Shown piece after piece: positions 7,587 to 47,913 of a stretch of DNA of 48,686 nucleotides. Under the pieces are notes generated by a model, which saw nothing but the letters and a program-made list of their open reading frames with translations, was not told the DNA's origin and did no database searches. The DNA is from a virus (lineage: Duplodnaviria; Heunggongvirae; Uroviricota; Caudoviricetes), in IMG/VR virus record IMGVR_UViG_643348546_000001. The stretch is one strand, 5' to 3'. Position 1 is the first letter of the stretch, and the number at the start of each line of letters is the position of its first letter. The position numbers were made by a program, and so were the translations under genes.

Positions 7587-7883
7587 TTATACCTCTGAAT
7601 CAATATCAACCTGATGGTGAGCAATGGTTTCAACCATGTACCGGATGTGTTCTGCCATGCGCTCCTGAAACTCAACATCGTCATCAAATGCACGGGTAAT
7701 GGCTTTTTTGCTGGCCCCGCAGCGTTGTAAATGATCGATGCAGAGCGATTCAAACAAATGCTGGGGCAGGCCTTTTTCCATGTCGTCTGCCAGTTCTGCC
7801 TCTTTCTCTTCACGGGCGATCTGCTGGTAGTGACGCGCCCAGCTCTGAGCCTCAAGACGATCCTGAATGTAATAAGCATTCAT
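7587..7883 (-). CDS. gam: Host-nuclease (RecBCD) inhibitor Gam
   Basis: 98-aa ORF matching lambda Gam ([21 protein letters not shown]...VDIDSEV); the lambda upstream extension (MDINTET...) is absent. Confidence 0.95.
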
Positions 7884-7959
7884 GGCTGAACTCCTGAAAA
7901 TGGCTGTGAAAATATCGCCCGCGAAATGCCAGGCTGATTAGGAAAACAGGAAAGGGGGG

Positions 7960-8250
7960 TTAGTGATTCAGGCCGTTACCGCGTCCGTCGAGAAAAACTT
8001 CCACGAGCAAATCACGGGTATAAGTGCGCTCGATGCCGCGATGCAGATAAAGCCGTCCGCGTAAATTAGCTGATGCAGTCCAGGTACCATCTTTGTGTTT
8101 GACCAGCATTCCTGGCATGACCGCACCTCGATTAACGGTCTGCGTTCCGTAATGTTGATGAACCATAAAAACTCCTGCCCGTAAGCTGGGCTGCTGAACA
8201 TATAAAGACTTCTGCGCGTATTCAGGCGGTGGATGGCCGCCGGTTGTCAT
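7960..8250 (-). CDS. Hypothetical protein at the kil/cIII position (start uncertain)
   Basis: ORF 7960-8370 begins with TTG; first ATG at 8250 gives 96 aa (MTTGGHPPPEYAQ...GRGNGLNH); C-terminus differs from lambda Kil (...SKSIH). Confidence 0.35.
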   Translation of the reverse strand: MTTGGHPPPEYAQKSLYVQQPSLRAGVFMVHQHYGTQTVNRGAVMPGMLVKHKDGTWTASANLRGRLYLHRGIERTYTRDLLVEVFLDGRGNGLNH

Positions 8251-8439
8251 AACTAAGCCGCCTCGTTGAAGCGACTGAGGTATGAAGTGTTGAGTTGATT
8301 TCAGCTGGTCACACCGACGTTCACGCGTCCGCTTCACCCCTCGCACTCCCCGGAGCCTGCTGAAATTCAAGCTGCGGATCTAAGCGGTCATCGCAACGGT
8401 GAATCAGGTGATTGCCGTATCGTTGTGTTGTTGCGACAT

Positions 8440-8500
8440 GGTGATAATAGCTATTGCTATTGATGATATCAATACTTATTGCTATTGCTAGATGTGTTTT
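8440..8500 (-). promoter_or_regulatory. Putative PL promoter with operator repeats (OL)
   Basis: On the minus strand: -35 TTGATA, 17-nt spacer TCATCAATAGCAATAGC, -10 TATTAT; spacer and flanks carry the TTGCTATTGCT / TAGC-N4-GCTA motifs also found in the cI-cro intergenic region. Confidence 0.55.
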
Positions 8501-8644
8501 GATATTAAATATTTGATAGCAAAAAGAATTAATTTTGTGACTTGCATCGCATAGCGATAACTGAAGCGGGGTTGTGGTGGTTTTTTGAACGGTGTGTGTG
8601 ATGAGGGGAGGCAAAAGAAAACCCGGCACGGTGGCCGGGACGTT

Positions 8645-9157
8645 TTATTTCAAAGAAAAATTATGACTAGCGTATCTTGGAAGAAATTCATATAGTGTTA
8701 ATGTCTTAACGCCGTGAGAAGCAGCCGCATCCGGGATCATTATTCTTTTTTTAGGTTTGCCACCGGATGGTTTCTCATGGGTAATAATAGTATATCCATG
8801 TGTCATCGCATGGGCTATTAAAAAAGCATCTGCTTTTTCATGGCTTGCAAAATCAAACTTTGCCTTTTCGGTAACATCTAATTTAGTTGACCAATTTATT
8901 AACTTTGCATAATTTTCTATTGAACTATGCTCATCTTCGAAGAATGATGATGGTAACTCTTCTTTAATCCATTTACACAATGGATCATCTTTTGCACATA
9001 GTTCTTTTTTTACAGCATTAATGCTATAAATCAGACCATTAATGTGTAAAGCGAGAAGAAAATCCCAAAATATTTTGCAATAATTGAAGTTATATGCAAA
9101 GTTTTTTGCCTCTATGAAGACATTACTATCAATTAAGAATTTTCCATTATGAATCAT
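8645..9157 (-). CDS. PIN-like nuclease-fold protein (DUF4411-like), predicted toxin/effector
   Basis: 170-aa ORF; N-terminal FLIDSNVFIE and later acidic/Thr positions (ADAFLIAHAMTHGYTIITHEK) fit a PIN-like pattern; overlaps the upstream gene's stop by 4 nt; very AT-rich. Confidence 0.6.
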   Translation of the reverse strand: MIHNGKFLIDSNVFIEAKNFAYNFNYCKIFWDFLLALHINGLIYSINAVKKELCAKDDPLCKWIKEELPSSFFEDEHSSIENYAKLINWSTKLDVTEKAKFDFASHEKADAFLIAHAMTHGYTIITHEKPSGGKPKKRIMIPDAAASHGVKTLTLYEFLPRYASHNFSLK

Positions 9158-10293
9158 AGAGATTCTCGTTTTTTATAAAATTCAACAACTGTATCTGCTT
9201 TTACATTTAGCAGTACGCCTGCTTCCCTTAATGGTAATTGTTGAGACATTGCTTTGGAAATTATTATATTCGTAAGTTTTGGACTGTTACGAACAGGTAA
9301 TGTGTTAAAGAAAGAACCACCATTAGATTCTTTTTTGGGCTTATTGTAAGCTTGATCTTTAATTATCTCCAAAGTGTTTCTTTCTATCAAATCTAATTGT
9401 AACGCTTTGATTGCACAAGCGAAATCACTAACCTTAAATAACTTAGAAACCTCTTTTACTCGATAATAATTATTATCGCTGGATGCATTAAGCCAGAAAG
9501 ATTTGAAGAGATTATCAGGCATTAAGATTTCAGCAGCAACTTTATTACAAAAAGATTCTATGTTTTTTTCTGTGTCCCACCCAGAGACTCCATCGACTCC
9601 AAGCCAAAGATGAGCCACCTCATGAAATAATGTAAATACCTGCGCAGATAACGCGTCCGAGCTATTTACAAAAATGATCGGAGCAACGCTATCAGATATA
9701 CAGAAACCACGAAACTCTCGCGTGTCAAGTTTTCTTTTATTATTATTACCCACAACACCATTCTTGAAAACTAATACGCCAGTGTCTTCTATTAATTTTG
9801 CCACTTTAGAAAAATAGCTCTCAAAAGTGACATTTTTTATCTCTTTTTGTATATCAAAATGTATTGTGTTTGCTATGTCTGTAGCAACAACCTTATAATT
9901 TAATTTTCTATTAAATTTAAATTTACCAATAAAATCGAGTGGATCATCATTACCATTTTCTCTTAAATAGTCTTTGTACCACTCAAGTTTATATTCTATA
10001 TCATAGTAAACATCAAAAAAATCTTTTCCTAACTCACGGCTATTTATAGCTTGCCTTAAGTCAGGGATCTTGGGTTTGGCTGGAGTTGGTGGCGTTTCAA
10101 GAAATAAAAAACCGAAAGGGATTCCTCCAATTTTTGCCAGTTTTTCTGCTGCGGATTTACTTACCACTCCGTTAAGAAATTTATTAATCTTTTTGGGCAT
10201 GACTTGGTCAGCAAGAGTTTCGATAGAAACTCCTTGAGAATTTGCTATCCAATCAATCATCTTCCTAGACAATTGAAATTCAACCGCTGCCAT
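9154..10293 (-). CDS. HTH-domain / ImmA-IrrE-family (COG2856-like) zinc metallopeptidase protein
   Basis: 379-aa ORF; HExxH motif (FHEVAHLWLG) in the middle, HTH-like N-terminal segment; AGGTGA RBS 4 nt before the ATG; very AT-rich. Confidence 0.65.
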   Translation of the reverse strand: MAAVEFQLSRKMIDWIANSQGVSIETLADQVMPKKINKFLNGVVSKSAAEKLAKIGGIPFGFLFLETPPTPAKPKIPDLRQAINSRELGKDFFDVYYDIEYKLEWYKDYLRENGNDDPLDFIGKFKFNRKLNYKVVATDIANTIHFDIQKEIKNVTFESYFSKVAKLIEDTGVLVFKNGVVGNNNKRKLDTREFRGFCISDSVAPIIFVNSSDALSAQVFTLFHEVAHLWLGVDGVSGWDTEKNIESFCNKVAAEILMPDNLFKSFWLNASSDNNYYRVKEVSKLFKVSDFACAIKALQLDLIERNTLEIIKDQAYNKPKKESNGGSFFNTLPVRNSPKLTNIIISKAMSQQLPLREAGVLLNVKADTVVEFYKKRESL

Positions 10294-10422
10294 GTTATCA
10301 CCTAGTTAAAAAAAACTATTATTCAACAATTATTGTTGTGCACCTGATAGCTAACGTCAAGCCTAATTTATTGCCTTACTACAGTAAGCTGAAAAGCGAA
10401 GTGCATAATTTTGTTCTGATTT

Positions 10423-11115
10423 CTACCCATGCTTTCTATATGTCTGCGGCATGCTCCCGATGACTTTCCCGAAGATGAACACGCGGTTCATCTCGTCTTT
10501 CTCGATCGGGTCCCACGGTGAGTAGCTCTTGTTATCAGAGATAACCAGCAGCTTATCCTTCATCATTTGCAGGCGTTTTACATGGGCGGTGTCGTCATAC
10601 AGAAACGCATAGATACCATCACCGTCGAAAGATTTAACCGTGATATCAACGAACAGCAGATCACCTGGTTCGATCGTTCCTGACATGCTGTCACCACGCA
10701 CGTTAATGATGCGGATATTTTCCGCCTTCCTGCCATCGAACATGTGACGAGCATCGTCAAACGAGTATTCAACCGAGCGTAGAACTTCTACAAACTCACG
10801 GTTGATTACACCCGGCCCGGCACTGACTTCTATATCAAGAACGTCAATTTTGAAGTATTTGGAATGGCTGACAGCAGGCTTCCCTGATTGTTGACCGTCA
10901 TTTCTCATCGGGCCTATGCCTGAAGAGAGCCATTCTGTTCGAACACCCAATGCATTAGCTATTTCAACAATTTTTGTTGAGCCGCGCGCGTTGCCGCTTG
11001 TCAGTCTCCAGATTGTGGGTTGAGCTACGCCAGACGCCTTTGCAAGAGCGCCTTGAGACATTCCAGATTGTTCCATCGCTAGATTTAAGCGATCAGCAAG
11101 AGTTTCTTTTTTCAT
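10423..11115 (-). CDS. cI: CI-like prophage repressor (HTH + S24 LexA-like autopeptidase domain)
   Basis: Start assigned to the ATG at 11115 (the longer ORF starts with TTG); N-terminal HTH (LADRLNLAMEQSGMSQGALAKASGVAQPTIWRL), C-terminal Ser/Lys dyad context (RGDSMSGTIEPGDLLFVD ... KRL); not lambda cI by sequence; mRNA appears leaderless from PRM. Confidence 0.85.
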   Translation of the reverse strand: MKKETLADRLNLAMEQSGMSQGALAKASGVAQPTIWRLTSGNARGSTKIVEIANALGVRTEWLSSGIGPMRNDGQQSGKPAVSHSKYFKIDVLDIEVSAGPGVINREFVEVLRSVEYSFDDARHMFDGRKAENIRIINVRGDSMSGTIEPGDLLFVDITVKSFDGDGIYAFLYDDTAHVKRLQMMKDKLLVISDNKSYSPWDPIEKDEMNRVFIFGKVIGSMPQTYRKHG

Positions 11116-11225
11116 AAGTTTTAATTTATACGCTTGCGTATTGATGGTCAAAACACGTTTTGCTATTGCTTGGATTAATACGCATTGCTATTATTCATTC
11201 ATTGCAATACCAATAGGAATTGATA
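11116..11225. promoter_or_regulatory. Divergent PRM/PR promoters with operator repeats (OR)
   Basis: PR (plus strand): -35 TTGCTT 11166-11171, 17-nt spacer, -10 TATTAT 11189-11194. PRM (minus strand): -35 TTGACC (11144-11149), 17-nt spacer, -10 TAAATT (11122-11127), placing the transcript start about at the cI ATG. Palindrome TACGCTTGCGTA 11129-11140 and TTGCTATTGCT-type repeats. Confidence 0.6.
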
Positions 11226-11453
11226 ATGACAAATCAAACCATTCAACTCGCAATCAGTATTACAGGCAGTCAAAAACGACTGGCAGATCTATGCGGTGTA
11301 GCCCAACCCACAGTTTGGCGTTGGCTACACGGTGGCGGAATTGATGCCCGCTATGTAATGAAAATTGTCTCAGCCACTGGTGGAAAGATTAAACCAGCAG
11401 ATATTCGTCCCGACCTCGCACCATTGTTTAACGCGAGTAATTCTGCCGCCTAA
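11226..11453 (+). CDS. cro: Cro/YdaS-like HTH regulator
   Basis: ATG at 11226 after AGGA; HTH-like QKRLADLCGVAQPTVWRWLHGG; first gene of the rightward operon opposite the repressor. Confidence 0.8.
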   Translation: MTNQTIQLAISITGSQKRLADLCGVAQPTVWRWLHGGGIDARYVMKIVSATGGKIKPADIRPDLAPLFNASNSAA

Positions 11454-11477
11454 ACTGCGGCGTTAACTGATAAGGCA

Positions 11478-12023
11478 ATGACTATGCAACCACTTACATA
11501 CCAACAGACTAGCGGATTTAGCCCGACTGCGGTGATAAATCGTTCTCAAACAAAACAGGTGGCAGGCCACGAAAAAATCCGTGATGCCGTCCGCGCCTGG
11601 TCGGCTGTAGATAATCAGGATGTCGTTGCCACACTCATTGTGAATGAGTATCGGGAGCAGGGCGGCGGCACCATCGATTTCCCTGATGATGTCAGCCGTG
11701 CACGCCAGAAGCTGTTCCGCTTCCTCGATAACAAATTCGATTCTGAAAAATACCGAAATAACGTGCGTGAACTGACCCCGGCAATTCTGGCGGTACTACC
11801 GCTGGAATATCGCGGTTACCTGGTTGAGCAGGATAGCTTCATGGCTAGGTTGGCTGAAATGGAAAAGGAACTCAGTGAGGCAAAACAGGCTGTCATTCTC
11901 AACGCACCACGCCACCAGAAACTGAAGGAAATTAGTGAAGGTATTGTATCGATGTTTCGTGTGGACCCAGATCTGGCTGGTCCATTGATGGCGATGGTTA
12001 CTACCATGCTGGGGGCGATATGA
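11478..12023 (+). CDS. YdaT-family protein (CII-position regulator)
   Basis: 181-aa ORF; NEYREQGGG...RELTPAILAVLPLEYR parallels remembered Rac YdaT (EEYLRQGGG...QKLIPAILAILPRELR). Confidence 0.6.
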   Translation: MTMQPLTYQQTSGFSPTAVINRSQTKQVAGHEKIRDAVRAWSAVDNQDVVATLIVNEYREQGGGTIDFPDDVSRARQKLFRFLDNKFDSEKYRNNVRELTPAILAVLPLEYRGYLVEQDSFMARLAEMEKELSEAKQAVILNAPRHQKLKEISEGIVSMFRVDPDLAGPLMAMVTTMLGAI

Positions 12024-45484: not shown

Positions 45485-45760
45485 TATCCTTCAAGCCCTG
45501 AAGGAGGCTGTTCCTGGTACGTTCAGACTGTTGCTGAGCTGGAGATCGCAACGGAGGAAGAGACATCGTTACTGACGGCATGGAAGACATATCGGGTGTT
45601 GCTGAACAGTGTTGATACATCAGTAGCACCGGATATTGAATGGCCAGTAGCACCTATAGGGTAAATTCGTAATGATTACCTAAATACGTTATTCTTTTGT
45701 TAAAAAAGTGATTTTGCTATAGGTAGGGAGTATGTTCTTGGATTAAGAATAAAAAATCGC

Positions 45761-45790
45761 CATGAAAGAGCTTCATGGCGAGTACATAAA
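45761..45790 (-). terminator. Putative intrinsic terminator (minus strand)
   Basis: 9-bp stem CGCCATGAA / TTCATGGCG with a 5-nt loop, followed on the minus strand by ATTTTTTATT. Confidence 0.4.
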
Positions 45791-46524
45791 CGTACAAAAT
45801 GTGATGAAAGTAGAGTGGCGTAAGCCACAATATTAAGATATGACAATAGCGAAGAAAAGTAAATAACATTTTATGGACGTTTAATTGTTAATTATAAAAA
45901 CTAGAGTGCCCGATATTGTTTATCTTGCTTTAAAATAATGTACTCAAACCAAATTTTTGAGCTAAAAGCTCAAATAATATAAATGCAATGATAATGTTTA
46001 ATAAGACAATTAGCTTGCTTTGTATTTTCATTTCGGAATACTGTTAAGTAACTTTGATGATCCTAACAATAGATCGGAATTTTCTTAGAGTCAATGGTCA
46101 CTGTTTTTGCTTGCAAAGCAAATGTTTTGGTGGTTATAAGTTGTCTTAATATAGTCACGCATGCAACTTGTTCCATGCGGAGATTAAAGATTGGAATATA
46201 ACGCGAAGATGGAATTAAATTACATTTGCAATAATCAATTTATTATTACTCAATAATTACCGATATTATTATTGTAAATTAATCATTAGAGTGCAAAAAG
46301 AAATGTAACGGCAAAATAAGAGGACGATAGCTGAGAAAAAAGCGTGCTTTCCCAATCTGGGGCAAATCACGTCTGAATGACACCTGAAAACAGGTGGTAG
46401 CCTCAAGAAGGCTTGGAATATTCTTCTTTAATGTTATGTAATTCATTGATTTTTCGTGTACAATTTTAAGACATTTATTCCAAGAGAAATTTTTAACTCT
46501 TTGATTTTTCGACTCTGTATCATC

Positions 46525-46585
46525 GGTCTCGAAAACCGGAGTAGGGGCAACTCTACCGGGGGGTCAAATCCCCCTCTCTCCGCCA
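46525..46585 (+). other. 3' segment (about 61 nt, anticodon stem to CCA-proximal end) of a tRNA-Ser gene, with one T-loop substitution; probable integration-site remnant
   Basis: GGTCTCGAAAACCGGAGTAGGGGCAACTCTACCGGGGGGTCAAATCCCCCTCTCTCCGCCA matches the remembered 3' two-thirds of E. coli serU (CGA anticodon) except GGGGGTTCAAATC to GGGGGGTCAAATC; the 5' acceptor/D-arm is absent. Confidence 0.7.
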
Positions 46586-47169
46586 CTTTATCAATGACTT
46601 ATCTCCCGACTTCCCGCCTTGCTTTTCCTAAACAGAACAATCGTAGAATATTCTTGAAGGGTTAGATCGTCACTGTTTTCTGTTCGATACTGTGACATTC
46701 AGCACTTGATTCGCTATGGATCTGACAGGAAGGTTTTGAGCGAAAATTTGCAGTTATTCAGTCGTTTTCTTATCGGTCACCATTATTCTTTTAGACATTG
46801 ATCCTACAAAGCTGCCGCAAAGTTGGTGGTGGGAACTGAAGTTGCGTAGAGAAGGGGTCAATACCCGGAGGCAAACATGGGCTGGCAAAAGTGTAGCGGT
46901 ATTAGGCGCAGCTATTTAGCCTAGTTATGTTTTATGAAAACTTGATATCATATAAGTGTCTTACTTATTGGCTGTAAATAAGTTTTTCCTAAGGAATTGT
47001 TTCTTGAGTATCATTTGTAACTGTAACGGAATTTATAATCCTTTGCTTTATTGTTACGGTATTTTTTATTACACCCTATTTTTTATGTGGTTTTTTATAC
47101 TGACGTTTGGCAAAGTGAACTTTATATGCATATACTTCATCCTGGTTTCAGTTAAGTTGGGTGGATGAT

Positions 47170-47913
47170 ATGGCAACTACATGTTCAGTTATATTGATTT
47201 TGGAGTCCTTTGATGTTTATTTCGGAAAAGAGAGTGTGTTTCTGGAGAGAGGTTCATCTGTACTTGTCGACTCTAGCTCTAGAGATTTTTTCCTGACATA
47301 TCCTGAAAGAGTGATAGTGGCGGATTTTGGCGCTGAGTTTATTAGTCGCTATTTGAAAGCTAATAACTTAAGGGATATTTCTGATTGTAGGGAATATCCA
47401 TCTTATTTAAAAATAAACTTTGCTGACTTCAGTTTAATTAAAGGATTAATTAGTTGGGCTAATCACTGTGCTGAATACATAGAAATTTTTGATGAGTCTA
47501 TTGCTTTTACATGTCTCTCTGCATTTTCTTCTGAAAAACAATTTGGAGTATTTCTGTTTGAATGTTTGAAAAGCACAGAGGCTAAAGTTAAAACGATTAT
47601 TCATACGGATTTATCTGCACCATGGCGTCTTAAGGATATATCATCAAGATTATATCTCAGCGAAAGTTTACTAAAGAGGAAATTGAAAGAAGAGGGGGTA
47701 TCATTCAGTAAGATCATACTTGATGAAAGGATGCAAATGGCTGAATATTTACTCAGCACTCGTTGTTATCCTATTAGTAAAGTAGCTAAGGTCTGTGGTT
47801 ATGCCAGTGTCTCATACTTTACTTATGTATTTAGACGTTATTTTGGTGTTTCTCCAAGTCAATACTCTCAGAGGAGTTCAGAAAGTAAAATTCTTACTCA
47901 CCAGGGAATCTGA
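47170..47913 (+). CDS. AraC/XylS-family transcriptional regulator (AppY/EnvY-like; AT-rich, horizontally acquired)
   Basis: ORF 47161-47913, ATG at 47170 preferred (GGTGGA RBS); C-terminal double HTH typical of AraC family (SKVAKVCGYASVSYFTYVFRRYFGVSPSQY); AT-rich codon usage. Confidence 0.85.
   Translation: MATTCSVILILESFDVYFGKESVFLERGSSVLVDSSSRDFFLTYPERVIVADFGAEFISRYLKANNLRDISDCREYPSYLKINFADFSLIKGLISWANHCAEYIEIFDESIAFTCLSAFSSEKQFGVFLFECLKSTEAKVKTIIHTDLSAPWRLKDISSRLYLSESLLKRKLKEEGVSFSKIILDERMQMAEYLLSTRCYPISKVAKVCGYASVSYFTYVFRRYFGVSPSQYSQRSSESKILTHQGI

Follow-up and report, generated by a model that had tools for sequence, protein, structure and literature searches.

A two-gene cassette between cI and PL

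The window analysed here (the whole of IMG/VR record IMGVR_UViG_643348546_000001, 48,686 nucleotides) is a complete lambdoid prophage that occupies the lambda attachment site, with ybhC and ybhB on either side, and the part of it that was compared, 8300-10500, is 100% identical to E. coli IAI1 (NC_011741.1). Directly downstream of its CI-like repressor gene, and on the same strand, lies a cassette of two genes, which encode a 379-residue (aa) metallopeptidase with a predicted helix-turn-helix (HTH) domain and a 170-aa DUF4411 protein. An earlier note on this DNA had read the pair as a toxin-antitoxin (TA)-like or abortive-infection module in the place where lambda carries rexAB. The features that define the locus are the following:

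10423 to 11151, minus strand: CI-like prophage repressor (Pfam Peptidase_S24, 1.5e-18; HTH_3, 1.5e-6)
10294 to 10422, minus strand: cI/peptidase intergenic region of 129 bp, the start of the cassette, absent from prophages that have the same cI and other cargo
9154 to 10293, minus strand: HTH-M78 peptidase gene, 379 aa, antitoxin/sensor candidate
8645 to 9157, minus strand: DUF4411 gene, 170 aa, toxin/effector candidate
8622 to 8639, minus strand: intrinsic-terminator-like hairpin, six GC pairs followed by TTTTCTTTT, 5 nt past the DUF4411 stop codon
8438 to 8486, minus strand: OL/PL region, a PL-like promoter overlapped by operator-like TTGCTATTG elements
11144 to 11192, no strand assigned: OR region in the cI/cro gap, paired with the OL repeat

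The two open reading frames (ORFs) lie as the earlier note had placed them, co-directional and with a 4-nt overlap, ATGA, that is read in ...CTATGATT.... The AT-richness it had remarked on is real: the two-gene block has 33.4% GC against 50.1% for the window, and is the lowest-GC stretch of 1649 bp anywhere in it. The order cI, cassette, terminator, OL/PL likewise bears out the comparison with the rexAB slot. The CI-like repressor lies outside the cassette, as context, and the variable slot is bounded by it upstream and by the hairpin at 8622-8639 downstream, where the cI-cassette transcription unit also ends. Beyond the hairpin, the PL-like promoter (TTGATA-17-TATTAT, minus strand, -35 at 8472 and -10 at 8444) falls within a 49-nt block that recurs with 73% identity, and with TTGCTATTG elements, in the cI/cro intergenic region (8438-8486 and 11144-11192). 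This is the longest direct repeat within 8380-11260 and fits an OL/OR pair, as expected.

The boundaries of the cassette can be drawn from comparison with other genomes. The cI/cro immunity region of the window is found in 718 E. coli genomes, and homology breaks at the cI stop codon; on the PL side, homology to sequenced lambdoid phages stops at about 8640, at the terminator. Taken together, these two breaks define the cassette as 8641-10422.

A peptidase with an N-terminal HTH-like domain and a conserved linker

The 379-aa protein is built from an XRE-type HTH region (residues ~1-64), a flexible linker (~65-89), an M78/IrrE-type zinc peptidase (~169-268) and an all-helical C-terminal region (~275-378). 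It matches Pfam Peptidase_M78 (1.2e-13) and, over residues 187-301 only, the PADLOC capP model (1e-14); 12 PADLOC models for RmrA, the Rosmer antitoxin, also match it, with expectation values (E) from 6e-8 to 8e-4, and two of these span residues 20-314. Its AlphaFold2 (AF2) model, with a predicted local distance difference test (pLDDT) score of 88.7, matches the structures of CapP, IrrE and PrpR, together with HTH domains of the CapH/DdrO/ImmR type. No Pfam HTH model matched any of the 51 homologues in our antitoxin conservation set, which extends down to ~37% identity, so the assignment of the N-terminal region as an HTH domain is taken from modelled structure only. The earlier description of this protein as an HTH-fused COG2856/M78 metallopeptidase is upheld. 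The model of the spr1629 repressor/antitoxin family (NCBIfam NF052239) matches it over the peptidase core only, with 24.6 bits (E 1.2e-5) against an equivalog cut-off of 335 bits.

Two sites in this protein bear on its possible mechanism:

9556 to 9624, minus strand: zinc site, H224-E225-x-x-H228 and E246
10054 to 10062, minus strand: D78-L79-R80 linker codons, predicted self-cleavage site, aligned with 'DFR' in VapB52, the antitoxin of the VapBC52 pair discussed below

The HExxH motif (H224-E-V-A-H228) pointed out in the earlier note is present and invariant. H224, E225, H228, E246, C249 and N250 are identical in 51/51 homologues, and C249, within an E-x-x-C-N motif, is the only conserved cysteine in the family. 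At residue 237, the position of the 'cysteine switch' of VapB52 and CapP, we found Ser (48/51) or Thr (3/51) and never Cys. The linker carries the motif (I/L)-P-D78-(L/F)79-R80, in which D78 and R80 are each invariant (51/51) and position 79 is mostly L (35 homologues) or F (15), with a single M (L/F in 50/51). Model confidence dips here, to pLDDT 67-72 over residues 71-90, in an unstructured stretch between the HTH domain and the peptidase. Overall, the 379-aa protein looks like a substrate domain of the CapH/DdrO/ImmR type fused to a protease of the CapP/IrrE/ImmA type.

A PIN-fold partner

The 170-aa protein belongs to Pfam DUF4411, a family of the PIN clan (1.2e-37), and matches Pfam PIN_3 weakly (E 0.2). 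Its AF2 model (pLDDT 88.8) has VapC/PIN toxins as all of its top 20 Foldseek matches, each with probability 1.00, and the best of them are Rv0301, Shigella VapC, VapC15 and VapC11. Among 45 DUF4411 homologues, D10, N12, E52, D110 and E128 are invariant (45/45); D10 is the aspartate of the FLIDSN motif to which the earlier note had pointed as PIN-like. We predict from this conservation that D10, E52, D110 and E128 (plus N12, D58 and T126) are catalytic. Profile and structure searches, which the note had proposed as a check, thus found both the metallopeptidase and the PIN fold. A scan of the locus with PADLOC, also proposed there, gave a divided answer: the peptidase matched capP and RmrA, and no model matched the DUF4411 protein at E <= 1. 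By analogy with its closest characterised homologue, the 170-aa protein is most likely a PIN-fold, metal-dependent RNase, and specifically a tRNase.

Relation to VapBC52

The closest characterised homologue of the pair is VapBC52 (Rv2514c and Rv2515c) of M. tuberculosis (Singh et al., Nucleic Acids Res June 2026, PMC13273310; PDB 9VZY, 9VZZ). We compared the two by sequence and profile, with the VapB52 and VapC52 sequences taken from HMMER alignments (chain residues 4-384 and 12-153). A profile of the peptidase family matches the antitoxin chain of 9VZY over its full length (positions 9-371 of 377; E 1.7e-23), and a profile of the DUF4411 family matches VapC52 (9vzy_D; E 1.7e-13), while pairwise identities are 27% and 26% for the two proteins. 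Gene order and overlap are shared, with the large antitoxin gene first and the DUF4411 PIN toxin gene second, in a translationally coupled arrangement. The antitoxins have the same succession of XRE-type HTH, linker with D-[F/L]-R (which contains the 'FR' motif of VapB52), M78/IrrE peptidase with HExxH and Glu, and helical C-terminal domain, and they have the same structural neighbours: CapP, IrrE, PrpR, BswR and C.Csp231I. In the toxins, D10 aligns with the catalytic D6 of VapC52. Judged by sequence, the cassette is therefore a distant relative of VapBC52, of a known kind and not a new system.

The two also differ. The prophage-borne members are proteobacterial, whereas VapBC52 is actinobacterial. 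VapBC52 occupies a chromosomal locus, whereas the family described here lies in the repressor-adjacent slot of lambdoid, Rac-like and P22-like prophages. Finally, Cys229, the 'cysteine switch' of VapB52, is replaced by Ser or Thr throughout our family, and S237 stands opposite C229 in the pairwise alignment. The authors of the VapBC52 study treat this cysteine as mechanistic and not as defining (PMC13273310).

What is known of VapBC52 suggests how such a pair could work. Antitoxin and toxin form a 1:2 complex; single-stranded DNA (ssDNA) triggers self-cleavage of VapB52, which removes the N-terminal domain near the conserved 'FR' motif; mutation of HExxH abolishes this cleavage; and cleavage frees the toxin, which cuts tRNAs, those of phage D29 among them (PMC13273310). 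Over-expression of VapC52 protects M. smegmatis from D29, whereas co-expression of toxin and antitoxin does not, and the M. tuberculosis locus has been linked to copper stress and virulence (PMC13273310). The logic that the earlier note had proposed, of a PIN effector controlled by a peptidase, matches that of this homologue. Its remark that it did not recognise the pairing as a characterised defence system is out of date, because HTH-DUF955 plus DUF4411 was predicted as a three-component TA system in 2017 (Matelska et al., PMC5499597), PIN-like partners of the ImmA node were noted in 2023 by NetFlax, which grouped ImmA-type antitoxins with Rosmer systems (PMC10440598), and the homologous VapBC52 pair has since been characterised, crystal structures included.

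Comparison with other peptidase and prophage systems

More broadly, the cassette belongs with Rosmer-like modules, in which a zinc-peptidase antitoxin is combined with a swappable toxin. RosmerTA (RmrT/RmrA; Millman et al. 2022; Ernits et al. 2023, PMC10440598) shares with it an antitoxin of HTH plus zinc peptidase, exchangeable toxin partners and carriage by prophages or phages, for example Gordonia phage Kita. However, the characterised Rosmer toxins are membrane-depolarising or of unknown fold rather than PIN nucleases, and the toxin gene comes first in ~58% of ImmA/Rosmer-node pairs (PMC10440598), whereas the antitoxin gene comes first here. In the terms by which PADLOC and DefenseFinder define RosmerTA, the RmrA component is present, and the DUF4411 protein matches no RmrT model.

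In the CapP/CapH, IrrE(PprI)/DdrO and ImmA/ImmR pairs, protease and substrate are separate proteins and the output is de-repression of an operon; here they are fused in one chain and the proposed output is release of a nuclease. CapP cuts its separate substrate, CapH, at an F-R bond (F82-R83), to which the predicted cut site in the linker here corresponds, and the switch cysteine is C114 in CapP and C229 in VapB52. The 379-aa protein differs from CapP in having neither a GAF domain nor a cysteine switch, and in the second of these it resembles IrrE. It does not form a CapP/CapH pair with its neighbour, since the capP match is confined to residues 187-301, the C-terminal region is all-helical without GAF and the HTH is fused. 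The resemblance to canonical VapBC lies in the PIN fold and the acidic active site of the toxin; the antitoxin, in contrast, is a 43-kDa multidomain peptidase instead of a ~10-kDa ribbon-helix-helix, AbrB or Phd protein, and the stoichiometry would be 1:2 if it follows that of VapBC52.

With lambda RexAB and BstA of Salmonella BTP1 the cassette shares its position (downstream of and co-directional with cI, before OL/PL), presumed expression in the lysogen and behaviour as cargo of a slot. The analogy is positional only: there is no relationship in sequence or fold, and the effectors differ, RexB being an ion channel and BstA acting at phage replication sites. Scans against four family libraries detected only peptidase, HTH-regulator and DUF4411 families in the cassette, and thus no RexA or RexB homologue. 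A Zn-peptidase antitoxin pair described by Rousset et al. (2020/21) was considered and rejected as a match, as it is a different prophage pair with a domain-less toxin and ClpP dependence.

Distribution of the module and other cargo of the slot

The cassette is present in 33/5,426 complete E. coli genomes, from diverse sources, and is always chromosomal and at least 99.7% identical; of the 718 genomes that have this immunity region, 33 carry it. A nucleotide search of sequenced phages found none that carries it, with matches to the PL-side flank only, and when 50,697 phage records were searched with the toxin by tblastn, the one match was distant and lay in an unannotated faecal phage. In essence, then, prophages are the only known source of the pair.

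In prophages with the same or similar immunity regions, the slot between cI and PL holds other cassettes, most of which are uncharacterised. E. coli strains 113 (locus L003, 2788-4389) and XJ6.2 (L002, 2803-4427) carry other cargo here, as does a third locus (L004, 4062-4442). Among the alternatives are a 533-aa SIR2 protein with a ThsA-like core, which matches the PADLOC candidate PDC-S25 at E 1e-234; a DUF3037 protein with a 273-aa partner; and a 126-aa ORF. Phage Perceval has a 340-aa protein and a 168-aa transmembrane protein in a RexA/RexB-like layout (L017, 3846-5396), and PhiR30_1 has a pair of 141 and 310 aa (L018, 3851-5205). The slot is thus a cargo hotspot. The cI-N region has been documented as a mosaic hotspot that carries RexAB and BstA (PMC8585504).

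Beyond E. coli, a Klebsiella Rac-like prophage and three Providencia prophages, which have different repressors and replication genes, carry the module in this position too, at 53-61% identity. In IMG/VR, an M78 gene lies directly upstream of the DUF4411 relative in 70/75 contigs, usually with an overlap of 4 or 8 nt, and two of the five exceptions run into contig ends; in all genomic loci that we inspected, with examples from Klebsiella, Providencia, Pasteurellaceae, a P22-like phage and a defence island, the peptidase gene is directly upstream. A repressor homologue lies within 1.5 kb upstream on the same strand in at least 45 of the 70 viral loci, a lower bound that was obtained with five query repressors and from loci that are not all independent. 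More distant copies occupy a Pasteurellaceae islet that also has Fic and IS605, a P22-like immI region, and a site next to genes for DUF499/HEPN and DUF1156. The family is thus predominantly repressor-linked prophage cargo, found beside at least five unrelated repressor types, which strengthens the case for the slot downstream of cI as a hotspot of defence genes.

Insertion sequences (IS) accompany the module at several loci. Elements of the IS605/IS200 family lie within a few kb of it in a Providencia prophage (L011, 9264-10394) and in the Pasteurellaceae islet (L012, 252-1700), both with an OrfB/TnpB-like gene and the latter also with a Y1 transposase gene; they may be relevant to the mobility of the cassette. 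In E. coli ATCC 43886 (NZ_CP024256.1; L005, 2010-3926) and strain E2528-C1, an IS1 within the peptidase gene splits it into fragments of ~188 and ~205 aa, and the DUF4411 toxin gene is intact and identical.

Expression signals

No intrinsic terminator is predicted on the minus strand in the gap between cI and the peptidase gene (10294..10422), so read-through from the cI promoters (PRM) is plausible. Two further features lie in this gap:

10332 to 10360, minus strand: candidate sigma-70-like promoter of the module, TTGACG-N17-AACAAT, ~40-67 nt upstream of the peptidase ATG
10323 to 10339, no strand assigned: perfect palindrome CAACAAT-A-ATTGTTG (CAACAATAATTGTTG), overlapping the -10 of the promoter candidate

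The promoter-like element recurs as TTGACG-N17-(C)AACAAT, 61-71 nt before the ATG, in five other enterobacterial lineages of the module, in which the intergenic sequence has otherwise diverged, and a variant, TTGACC-N17-(T)AATACT, is found in Morganellaceae. The earlier note, by its comparison with rex, had pointed to expression from PRM. Read-through of that kind is possible, but as a claim this was over-stated, having been inferred only, and the module has a conserved promoter-like element of its own.

The palindrome may be an operator through which the N-terminal HTH autoregulates the module, and two related lineages (L024; L029-31) likewise have ACAAT-N1-3-ATTGT downstream of the -10. The broader pattern TCAACAAT-WW-TTGTTG has exactly two sites in the 48.7-kb window, against none expected from shuffled sequence: one at 10323-10339, at the -10 of the cassette promoter candidate, and one at 10964-10980, within the cI coding sequence. 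We considered whether the second is specific to the cassette and rejected this, as it is backbone coding sequence of cI and is identical in prophages with other cargo. The resemblance between the two could reflect either chance or cross-regulation.

A model for the cassette and its alternatives

Starting from the observed domain identities, folds, invariant residues, full-length homology to VapBC52, boundaries and repressor linkage, we propose that the cassette at 8641-10422 is a horizontally acquired, prophage-borne type II TA or abortive-infection module of the VapBC52 kind, and we regard this account, with the mechanism that follows, as the probable one. In the lysogen, the 170-aa toxin, most likely a PIN-fold metal-dependent tRNase, would be kept inactive by the 379-aa protein, with expression from the module's conserved promoter, probable autoregulation through the palindrome and probable read-through from the cI promoter; transcription would end at the hairpin 8622-8639, before OL/PL. 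The middle, M78/IrrE/CapP-type peptidase domain would sense ssDNA that accumulates during replication of a superinfecting phage or upon DNA damage. Once triggered, the peptidase would cut its own linker at D78-[L/F]79-R80, and loss of the N-terminal domain would release the toxin, leading to RNA cleavage, arrest of translation and abortion of the infection. Four elements are carried over from homologues only, namely neutralisation of the toxin, ssDNA as trigger, tRNA as substrate and exclusion of phages, and our confidence in the parts differs. That the two genes form a functional TA pair of the VapBC52 type seems to us very probable by this analogy; exclusion of phages in the lysogen is favoured by a small margin; and for ssDNA as the trigger we see about an even chance.

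Several points weigh against this model. Since the intact VapBC52 pair gave no protection, defence by an intact module is unproven even in the reference system, and identity to that system is only ~26%. Control of the peptidase may differ, given that Ser or Thr replaces the zinc-capping cysteine in 51/51 homologues. This last point should not be given too much weight, as the switch cysteine is absent from IrrE and some CapP homologues too and IrrE is nonetheless stimulated by ssDNA; the missing cysteine weakens a strict claim of the same switch, and ssDNA sensing remains compatible with it. SOS induction of the resident prophage would itself set off a trigger of the ssDNA or DNA-damage kind, which creates a problem of self-immunity, and no solution to it is visible in the sequence. 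In the strains with IS1 in the peptidase gene, the toxin must be silenced by IS1 polarity, still be neutralised by a fragment, or be tolerated. Finally, as PADLOC has no toxin model for the DUF4411 protein, it would call no Rosmer or other system here.

The best-surviving alternative is that the pair is a TA module that serves selfish stabilisation of the prophage (addiction) or a response of the host to DNA damage or stress, with no meaningful anti-phage function. The architecture is indeed that of a type II TA module, the M. tuberculosis homologue is tied to copper stress and virulence and as an intact pair does not protect from D29, and in Pasteurellaceae the module is also found outside prophages, beside housekeeping genes. 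However, it recurs in the repressor-adjacent slot that holds RexAB and BstA, sibling prophages have a SIR2 defence candidate and other cargo in the same slot, another copy adjoins genes of the defence-island type, and peptidase-antitoxin modules of the Rosmer class do protect against phages. Carriage by 33/718 genomes is, moreover, the turnover expected of accessory cargo and not of a maintenance function. We therefore consider a purely addictive or stress-related role unlikely, though it deserves more weight than any of the accounts below.

Somewhat less probable still is a variant of the defence model, in which the prophage-borne proteobacterial branch is a true Rex-like superinfection-exclusion system that is wired unlike VapBC52 and possibly coupled to the lysis-lysogeny switch of its own prophage. 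With Ser in place of the switch cysteine, the peptidase could be 'primed' at all times, or could respond to something other than bulk ssDNA, such as an intermediate of replication or a protein of the invader. Coupling to the switch is suggested by the fact that the module travels with repressors of many unrelated immunity types; it could take the form of a self-immunity that spares the resident phage during SOS induction, or of cross-talk through the palindrome shared with cI. If this were true, E. coli would offer a genetically tractable model for how an ssDNA-type sensor separates resident phage from invader.

A third possibility is that the 379-aa protein is an anti-repressor of the ImmA type that governs induction of the prophage by cleaving the CI-like or another HTH repressor, with the DUF4411 protein as an accessory nuclease rather than a toxin. 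Peptidases of the ImmA/IrrE/CapP group classically cleave a separate HTH repressor upon DNA damage, the peptidase gene is directly beside a prophage repressor in most viral loci, and a near-copy of the upstream palindrome lies inside cI. Yet the CI-like repressor has an S24 autoprotease domain of its own; the peptidase family is found beside at least five unrelated repressor types, or none, and always with DUF4411; and its own CapH/DdrO/ImmR-like HTH and conserved cut-site motif place substrate and protease in one chain, as in the self-cleaving VapB52. The palindrome within cI, for its part, is backbone coding sequence that is present whatever the cargo. We judge this reading very improbable. 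Least credible of all is a reading of the pair as a moron remnant, cargo that is inert or in decay and at present does nothing in these E. coli prophages: the host prophage is decaying (an IS3-family insertion near xis, several pseudogenes, no recognisable N gene) and two strains tolerate IS1 in the peptidase gene, but across the 33 genomes, which come from diverse sources, neither ORF is ever broken and identity never falls below 99.7%, every catalytic or motif residue conserved in the family is retained, and the promoter-like element and terminator are intact.

The value of the finding lies in a tractable model in an E. coli prophage and in the documented, strong linkage of the family to repressors. 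VapBC52 itself sits in a slow-growing pathogen, and its anti-phage role has been shown only through over-expression of the toxin in a surrogate host, whereas the E. coli homologue has a native lysogenic setting in the rexAB/bstA position and is carried by easily manipulated strains. This opens to direct test whether the intact module excludes phages, what triggers a peptidase without the cysteine switch, and how self-killing is avoided when the prophage is induced. The SIR2/PDC-S25 protein, the DUF3037 pair, the 340-aa and transmembrane pair of Perceval and the PhiR30_1 pair are flagged as further candidates from the same slot.

Other features of the prophage

Downstream of OR, the window encodes a Cro-like HTH protein and then, at the position of cII, a YdaT-domain protein (11220-12023), a Rac-like arrangement next to O/P replication genes of the lambda type. 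In Klebsiella, the homologous cassette adjoins a switch of the RacR/YdaS/YdaT type. On the other side, a gene for an N-like antiterminator is neither annotated nor evident between PL and kil (8167-8644). The kil ORF (7960-8370, minus strand) has a long form of 136 aa from a TTG start, comparable with the 139-aa Kil annotated in phage Perceval, and the N-terminus of this long form is arginine-rich (RLRGVRGVKRTRERR), recalling the RNA-binding motifs of N proteins. An Rfam scan of 7800-11600 returned no nut/put-type or other RNA element, and only a sub-threshold chance match to a miRNA.

The early-left region of the prophage, at ~1562-2682 and nearby, shows signs of decay, with an IS3-family insertion (ISSen4) just downstream of xis, and the RefSeq annotation adds two DNA polymerase III theta-like pseudogenes and other truncated ORFs; given these signs, the resident prophage may be non-inducible. 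Besides the cassette, the window has just one strongly AT-rich island (GC < 0.36), at ~45500-47160. Over its ~1.5 kb it has neither an annotated gene nor an ORF that reaches 80 aa, and it is flanked on one side by a truncated gene for tail-fibre assembly and on the other by an AraC-family regulator (47161-47913), beyond which transposase fragments mark the right end of the prophage.

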